From assembly GCF_041248615.1 (NCBI RefSeq), contig NZ_CP158426.1: a stretch of 64,000 nt of DNA; one strand, written 5' to 3'. Shown here piece by piece: positions 52,144 through 53,191 of this stretch. Numbering within the stretch: position 1 is the stretch's first letter; the number at the start of each line of letters is the position of its first letter. The DNA is from Escherichia coli. Its GTDB lineage: Bacteria > Pseudomonadota > Gammaproteobacteria > Enterobacterales > Enterobacteriaceae. A program made the translations under genes and the position numbers. The notes under the pieces were generated by a model. That model was not told the DNA's origin. It saw only the letters and a program-made list of their open reading frames with translations, and did no database searches.

Positions 52144-53191
52144 ATGAAATATACACCGGTTGGCGTTGATATCGCAAAGTATCTGATTCAGGTTCACTTC
52201 ATCAATGAGTACACGGGCGAAGTGGTGGACAAGCAGCTACGTAGCAAGGATTTTCTGACGTTCTTCAGCAACCGGGAACCCTGTCTGATAGGTATGGAGG
52301 CTTGTGGAGGCTCCCAACATTGGGCGAGGGAACTGGAAAAAACTGGGACACAAAGTTCGGCTGTTGCAAGCTCGCTTCGTTAAAGCATTCGTCATGGGCA
52401 ACAAAAATGATGTGATGGATGCGCGTGCTATCTGGATGGCGGTACAGCAGCCCAGTAAAGATATCGCTGTTAAAACGGAAGAGAAGCAGTCAGTTCTGGT
52501 CCTGCACCGTTCGCGCAGACAACTGGTGAAGTTCAGAACCTCGCATATTAATACCCTTGGCACGCTCCTCGAGTTTGGTGAAATCCTCCACAAAGATTGG
52601 ACAGCGATGGACAGAAAGCTACCGACAGCCCTAGAGCGAATGAAGACGAACCTGCCGCCGTATCTCATCACTGTGCTTGAATACCAGTACAACAGACTGA
52701 GTGAGCTGGGCATGCAGATAGATGGCCTTGATAAACAGATTAACAGCGTGGCACGGCAGAGCGAAAACTGTAAGCGCCTAATGGAAATCCCCGGTGTGGG
52801 GCCGTTAATCGCTACGGCGGTGGTCGCCACCATGGGCGAGGCCTCAGCATTTAAATCCGGACGTGAGTTTGACGCTTATGTCTGTCTGGTGCCGAAGCAG
52901 ACGGGGTCCGCTGGGAAGGTTCGCATGCTGGGGATAAGCAAACGTGGGGATACCTACCACCGGACATTATTTATCCATGGGGCAAGGGCGGCAGCATTGC
53001 TGACCAAAGAACCCGGCCCATGGATCACGGAGCTGAAAAAACGGCAGCCGACAGGTGTAATGCCGATCAGTTTAGGAGCAGTTGACCGATCCAGGGTCTG
53101 TTTAAGAATCCTGAAACGCTCACTCGTTTCCGGATTTTTGTGCACAGAAAACCCCCAGCTAGGCTGGGGGCCGGAAAGCTTTCAGCTTTGA
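52144..53191 (+). pseudogene. IS110-family transposase with a frameshift in an A6 run
   Basis: N-terminus MKYTPVGVDIAK... in ORF 52045..52383; remainder in ORF 52304..53191 in another frame; break at GGAAAAAACTGGG near 52337. Confidence 0.7.

Follow-up and report, generated by a model that had tools for sequence, protein, structure and literature searches.

The insertion sequences (ISs) closest to the two considered here are, as far as intact copies go, simple single-gene elements. In the IS110 family, all 27 homologs that we aligned and all six loci compared at the DNA level have a single open reading frame (ORF) of about 339 to 340 amino acids (aa), and members of the family encode a guide (bridge) RNA in the conserved noncoding left end that precedes the transposase gene. 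ISEc39, of the IS256 family, is found intact next to ireA in Escherichia coli EC12, where it encodes a 402-aa transposase (WP_001566983.1). At the same time, IS genes form the largest group of genes that use slippage (PMC1088944). Here we describe two frameshifted transposase genes, one in an IS110-family element and one in an ISEc39-like IS256-family copy (variant 2), in a 64,000-nucleotide (nt) stretch of an E. coli chromosome (contig NZ_CP158426.1; the window) that holds an island with the aerobactin (iucABCD-iutA) and sitABCD genes. We are confident that both lesions are old, fixed one-base indels in decaying IS copies, most likely caused by replication slippage and inherited with the aerobactin/sit island.

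One-base indels at short A runs in two transposase genes

Homology of the IS110-family element to ISEc66, ISEc11, and other intact elements begins near position 51995 and ends at 53058 (Table 1). From the ATG at 52144, the frame reads MKYTPVGVDIAK...GGSQHWARELEK (...HWARELEK) and then continues out of frame as TGTQSS... to the stop at 52383. The first 66 or so residues of this upstream ORF are native and include the first two catalytic residues (Asp and Glu) of the DEDD motif, and homology picks up again in the +1 frame as KKLGHKVRLLQARF..., the +1 frame reading KKLGHKVRLLQARFVKAFVMGNKNDVMDARAIW.... A sequence-only reading had placed the break within an A6 run at 52330-52350. The tract concerned is GAAAAAA at 52336-52342, which lies in GGAAAAAACTGGG (52335-52347). 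In a DNA alignment of the remnant with six intact relatives (ISEc66, ISEc11, an element of E. coli SC418, and three metagenomic/SRA contigs), the 915-nt coding part has a single indel that shifts the frame, an extra base placed at 52335/52336, between the Leu codons CTG at 52333-52335 and CTG at 52343-52345. As the tract has 7 nt in the remnant and 6 nt in all six relatives, exactly one extra base lies in or beside the A6 run; the location of the break thus stands, whereas its being within the run is only probable, as the extra base may be a G.

The relatives support both choices. The closest one by DNA (91.5% identity) and one other read CTG AAA AAA CTG (Lys-Lys), and with A6 already present there the extra base may be a G; another intact relative reads CTG GAA AAA CTG (Glu-Lys), and its A5 makes an A the possible addition (A5 to A6). 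In the 27 closest proteins, close homologs have either E or K at residue 65, and three of those homologs, compared at the DNA level, show both CTGGAAAAACTG and CTGAAAAAACTG, the two candidate intact alleles being spanned by the pattern GGGAACTGRAAAAACTGGGACAC (R=G is the A5 form). For the closest relative, insertion of a G beside a preexisting A6 is an equally good fit. No intact copy nearer to the remnant was found in complete E. coli genomes (next best, 91% DNA identity) or on plasmids (about 81% or less), and no intact protein more than 87% identical to it was found among 5.8 billion proteins. The one 96% match in that search (P0096, 295 aa) most likely represents this pseudogene's own downstream ORF, as its length and coverage and the absence of the N-terminal domain indicate. 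Among the sequences sampled, the remnant alone represents its sublineage.

The frameshift splits the DEDD nuclease domain, leaving its first Asp and Glu in one frame and the remainder in the other. The upstream ORF has no Pfam domain match, and the downstream ORF matches PF02371 (E=4.5e-20) and, in its C-terminal part only, PF01548. Once repaired, the sequence aligns end to end with homologs bearing both domains, which places the element in the family; the single ORF of about 340 aa has been lost through the +1 insertion, a 3-nt deletion near 52557, and truncation at 53058. The element is the remnant of an IS110-family member, not a functional one.

Variant 2, by comparison, is complete. It is 96% identical to ISEc39 overall and 98 to 100% identical at both ends, its termini match the copies in EC12 and CFT073, and it is flanked by an 8-bp target-site duplication; the intact 402-aa ORF is absent. 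The transposase ORF ends ...SASKNGVCQSRTGGWQ (in a longer C-terminal stretch, ...AIQSASKNGVCQSRTGGWQ), whereas intact ISEc39 ends ...SASKKWSMPIQNWRLAMSRFIIEFGDRLSEHL*, and adding one A to variant 2 gives the same end. The frame shifts after residue 374, so that the last 28 ISEc39 residues are replaced by 12 unrelated ones. The sole indel relative to the intact ISEc39 of EC12 changes TCAAAAAAATGG to TCAAAAAATGG, that is, A7 to A6, just as the sequence-only reading had supposed in tracing the altered C terminus to a 1-nt loss in an A run. The comparison with intact reference copies that it had proposed as a check found unbroken frames in all six IS110-family DNA relatives and in ISEc39 of EC12.

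Homopolymers of at least 6 nt number only one or two per element, and the sole frameshifting indel of each element lies on or next to one of them. By our own estimate, a random indel would fall in a 7-nt tract in about 0.6 to 0.8% of cases per gene. Since an indel sits at a homopolymer in both genes, with a chance of less than 1% each, the link is not a chance one, and slipped-strand mispairing is likely. Such mispairing during replication at short homopolymer tracts would yield one-base indels of this kind, and the ISEc39-like copy would have inserted first and then lost one A from A7. An origin by slippage is secure for the A7-to-A6 change and probable for the IS110 site, slippage itself being the mechanism that we infer.

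Allele distribution and alternative explanations

Allele and locus counts were made in a set of 5,426 complete E. coli genomes. An 80-nt query on the IS110 site was 100% identical in 53 of 53 genomes, at one place in each and always on the chromosome, and the region 51900-53250 has a full-length match in 53 genomes (99.9 to 100% identity among the matches listed). The equivalent query for variant 2 returned 65 records at 100%, with A6, and 212 others at 98.8% (one at 97.5%), most of them annotated as ISEc39; the matched span of 81 nt in the latter is consistent with A7, as in the aligned ISEc39 copies. With a 225-nt query that included 60 nt of flank, the variant 2 insertion site was found in 65 genomes, among them LH50-c, which has four single-nucleotide polymorphisms in the flank and retains A6. 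Judging from these counts, A6 would be present in all copies at this locus and absent from other sites. No run-length polymorphism was seen at the IS110 site in the 53 genomes or at the variant 2 locus in the 65. The isolates that carry these lesions come from poultry (many of them), pigs, humans, and the environment and from many laboratories, hosts, and years. Lesions that are identical across so many independently sequenced isolates are therefore inherited alleles, which effectively excludes sequencing error and phase variation. The IS copies would no longer be under selection, and their lesions would pass on with the aerobactin/sit island; carried by 53 to 65 of the complete genomes, the shared lesions are stable markers of the island lineage and could aid epidemiological typing.

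Nothing that contradicts the reading of old, fixed indels was found, and what weighs against it comes to three caveats. First, the overlap between the 65 records with A6 and the 65 with this flank is judged from the counts. Second, the ISEc39-like product keeps positions 12 to 373 of the 379 of Transposase_mut (PF00872, mutator type; E=3.4e-114), so that we infer, rather than demonstrate, its loss of activity. Third, with the choice between A and G standing as it does, homopolymer slippage is less secure at the IS110 site. Judging from the sequences, transposase activity has almost certainly been lost in the IS110 remnant and has probably been lost in the ISEc39-like copy.

The alternative that survives best, though we think it improbable, is recoding, in which ribosomal frameshifting or transcriptional slippage bypasses the breaks and a functional transposase is still made, possibly with activity kept low. 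The mutation in variant 2, which is otherwise structurally intact, creates the in-phase heptamer A_AAA_AAU (TCA AAA AAT), and a −1 slip at this heptamer would, as read from the sequence, rebuild the native C terminus (...SKNWSMPIQNWRLAMSRF...); in one IS cluster for which no stimulator is known, the similar A_AAA_AAC has been proven to act as a −1 motif (PMC4066793). However, the relatives are all single-ORF elements, so that the two-frame layout is not conserved, and both runs have 6 nt, compared with the roughly 9 nt linked to slippage, the length at which selection against slippage-prone runs is reported for a large fraction of bacterial genomes (PMC1088944). No significant frameshift stimulator was found in the fold of the 76 nt spanning the variant 2 A6 run and the sequence downstream (z = −1.0), and intact ISEc39 has the identical downstream sequence. 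The number of A6 copies equals the single-locus count, with no sign of mobility. At the IS110 site, a +1 shift would be needed, there is no slow codon (the next codon is ACU) or stimulator, and the gene has been truncated and degraded in any case. Neither gene has the features of programmed frameshifting or slippage, namely, a two-frame layout conserved among relatives, together with either an in-phase slippery motif that has a stimulator or an A/T run of about 9 nt or more.

Other ISEc39 copies bear on the same question. A 1-nt deletion close to the N terminus is common to those in CFT073 and JCM5491, whereas the copy on plasmid AF5 has lost 9 nt at one place and one A at another (A5 to A4). 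As these copies are broken at different places, they point to independent decay rather than to a conserved recoding site, and with one of the indels again in an A run, A runs are recurrent break points in ISEc39. That variant 2 is a "leaky" pseudogene, in which occasional −1 slippage at A_AAA_AAU gives a trickle of full-length transposase, is likewise improbable. The earlier suggestion of slippage-prone sites, understood as variable or recoding tracts, is not supported in view of the constant run lengths, the single-ORF relatives, and the short runs.

Homopolymer sequencing or assembly errors, in which case the true genome would have intact frames, had also been proposed. Both breaks do lie at A runs, which are an error-prone context for some sequencing platforms, but the same 80 nt at the IS110 site recur in all 53 independent complete genomes and the A6 allele in 65, and the IS110 gene shows truncation and degradation besides its frameshift, so that an intact frame is not expected there; we regard this explanation as very unlikely. 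Equally unlikely are phase-variable (contingency) tracts toggling transposase expression, for which only the homopolymer location speaks, whereas neither locus varies in length in the 53 and 65 genomes and 6-nt tracts are short for high-frequency switching.

What remains of the earlier proposals is that of inactivating mutations, which is supported by the fixed, inherited state of both lesions in decaying IS copies. Both genes are best treated as pseudogenes rather than as active transposases, assembly errors, or recoding sites. This is ordinary mobile-element decay and nothing novel, with little import beyond annotation, and both genes are already flagged as frameshifted in public annotation: the RefSeq/PGAP label is [quoted passage not shown] for the IS110 gene and "IS256 family transposase; frameshifted" for the variant 2 ORF, and RefSeq labels most IS remnants of the iron-uptake island as frameshifted or incomplete.

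Further decay, recombination, and genomic surroundings

Table 1. Coordinates in the window of the two elements, their lesions, and the adjoining IS fragments
Feature	Position	Strand	Description
IS110-family element remnant	51995..53058	+	Left noncoding end and broken, 3'-truncated transposase gene; right end missing
Upstream ORF of broken IS110 transposase	52144..52383	+	79 aa; from translation and alignment to 27 intact homologs
Frameshift tract GAAAAAA	52336..52342	+	7 nt, compared with 6 nt (two codons, EK or KK) in intact relatives
Rest of IS110 transposase coding sequence	52343..53058	+	+1 frame, part of ORF 52304-53191; native end ...ELKKRQPTGV
In-frame 3-nt deletion site	52556..52558	+	Nearly invariant His removed, INALHGT to INTL-GT
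Complete ISEc39-like IS256-family element (variant 2)	31600..32913	-	1314 bp, both ends identical to ISEc39
8-bp target-site duplication, right copy	31592..31599		ATTCTGAA on minus strand
8-bp target-site duplication, left copy	32914..32921		ATTCTGAA on minus strand
Frameshifted transposase ORF of variant 2	31682..32842	-	386 aa, 374 native and 12 foreign residues
A6 run on coding strand (T6 on +)	31719..31724	-	A7 in intact ISEc39
Segment between IS110 remnant and IS200C left end	53059..53128		About 70 nt, matches neither element
IS200C fragment, left half	53129..53519	+	STnc490 small RNA (5' untranslated region) and truncated tnpA
IS256-family fragment	53515..54323	-	N-terminal ~60% of transposase gene; truncates IS200C

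Apart from the frameshift, the IS110 remnant lacks about 34 C-terminal residues and, with homology stopping at 53058, the whole right end. Of 219 positions with at least 90% conservation, 16 deviate in the remnant, compared with 0 to 13 in intact homologs, which is the highest count among the 28 aligned sequences. Several separate lesions have left this copy dead.

The remnant retains the left-end stretch (51995-52143), which can be aligned with five relatives. Within it, about 80 nt just upstream of the ATG (52066-52143) are almost invariant, though the coding sequences of the relatives are only about 80 to 84% identical, and these nucleotides can fold as a long-range stem (GTGGAGCCTC...GGAGACTCCAC) around two hairpins. 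The stretch is presumably the scaffold of the guide or bridge RNA of the family. The remnant has three private changes here, at positions that are otherwise invariant, one of which breaks a predicted pair. In an Rfam scan, no family matched the IS110 left end, and only STnc490 (IS200) and the group II intron were matched; a weak match to Clostridiales-2 (E=0.26), far under the gathering score, was taken as chance.

Variant 2 also differs from ISEc39 in its interior. Its central 463 nt (32121-32583) are only 78 to 100% identical to ISEc39 in 50-column blocks, compared with 98 to 100% in the flanks, and are 100% identical to positions 53530-53992 of the IS256-family fragment 21 kb away. The element looks like a recombinant, one that two IS256-family copies on the island may have produced by gene conversion or recombination.

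The IS110 remnant sits in a nested pile with an IS200C fragment and an IS256-family fragment. The IS200C fragment is 96 to 97% identical to IS200C copies (query positions 100/106 to 490), with homology starting at 53129-53135, and its truncated tnpA covers positions 2 to 69 of the 121 of the Pfam Y1_Tnp profile; STnc490, an Hfq-binding small RNA that is the IS200 5' untranslated region, is full length at 53150-53271 (Rfam RF01405, 133.7 bits). The IS256-family fragment covers positions 17 to 246 of the 379 of Transposase_mut.

In annotated neighbor genomes, the order of the surroundings is a YadA-like adhesin gene, an IS256-family pseudogene, ISL3 and IS3 pseudogenes, a major facilitator superfamily (MFS) transporter gene, and iucABCD-iutA; several IS fragments follow iutA, and then come sitDCBA, the pile of IS110/IS200/IS256 fragments, and sodC, with a group II intron that has decayed after it. 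Some of these loci show changes of their own. The iucD ORF (40867-42144, +) has 425 aa in the window, and in the related strain XDL, PGAP labels iucD as "frameshifted" and gives it about 43 nt more; compared with the reference model, the frame of this aerobactin monooxygenase gene may thus be shifted at the C-terminal end on the island. The YadA-like adhesin gene (29200-30801, +) has a near-perfect internal tandem duplication of a 31-residue unit (×2), and its length in related genomes (1443, 1542, or 1602 nt) suggests variation in repeat number. A group II intron domain lies at 58179-58265 (−; Rfam RF00029, 64 bits), near an ORF at 58551-59792 (−), and the adjacent ltrA reverse transcriptase gene is annotated with an internal stop in related genomes; the intron is therefore another decayed mobile element.

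The window also holds two IS256-family copies, at 2479-3793 (−) and 46889-48203 (+), that are 100% identical, inverted, 43 kb apart, and have intact 402-aa transposases. Each has an embedded 38-aa ORF in another frame of the same strand (2890-3006, minus; 47676-47792, plus), which we take to be identical to the EAST1/astA enterotoxin, and the copies look like IS1414. Composite-transposon and inversion readings of the pair were rejected, as the copies have separate 8-bp target duplications (CGGTTAAC and ACAAATAA) and are thus independent insertions; the pair could nonetheless mediate inversion of the segment between. A 2025 paper on astA/IS1414 makes no mention of ISEc39 or frameshifts.

Comparison with known elements

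ISEc11, ISEc66, and the element of E. coli SC418 that encodes WP_000878015.1 have the same layout and domains (DEDD_Tnp_IS110 and Transposase_20) as the IS110 remnant. Coding sequences of the relatives are 79 to 91.5% identical to it in DNA and up to 87% identical in protein, and the upstream stretch of about 80 nt is shared. The remnant is unlike these elements in its +1 frameshift, in the loss of an in-frame codon, in its excess of substitutions, and in having neither the C terminus nor the right end. Variant 2, on the other hand, has the same frame as ISEc39 of EC12 but for one base; it shares the terminal sequences and the 8-bp duplication with ISEc39 and differs in the A6 run and the central 463 nt.

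Both loci bear some likeness to the programmed −1 frameshifting or slippage of the IS3 and IS1 families (A9/T9 runs) in having an A-rich tract at the frame junction, and variant 2 also has an in-phase X_XXY_YYZ heptamer, which is apparently accidental. They differ from those systems in that their IS110 and IS256 relatives have one ORF, in that no stimulator was found, and in that the runs are shorter.
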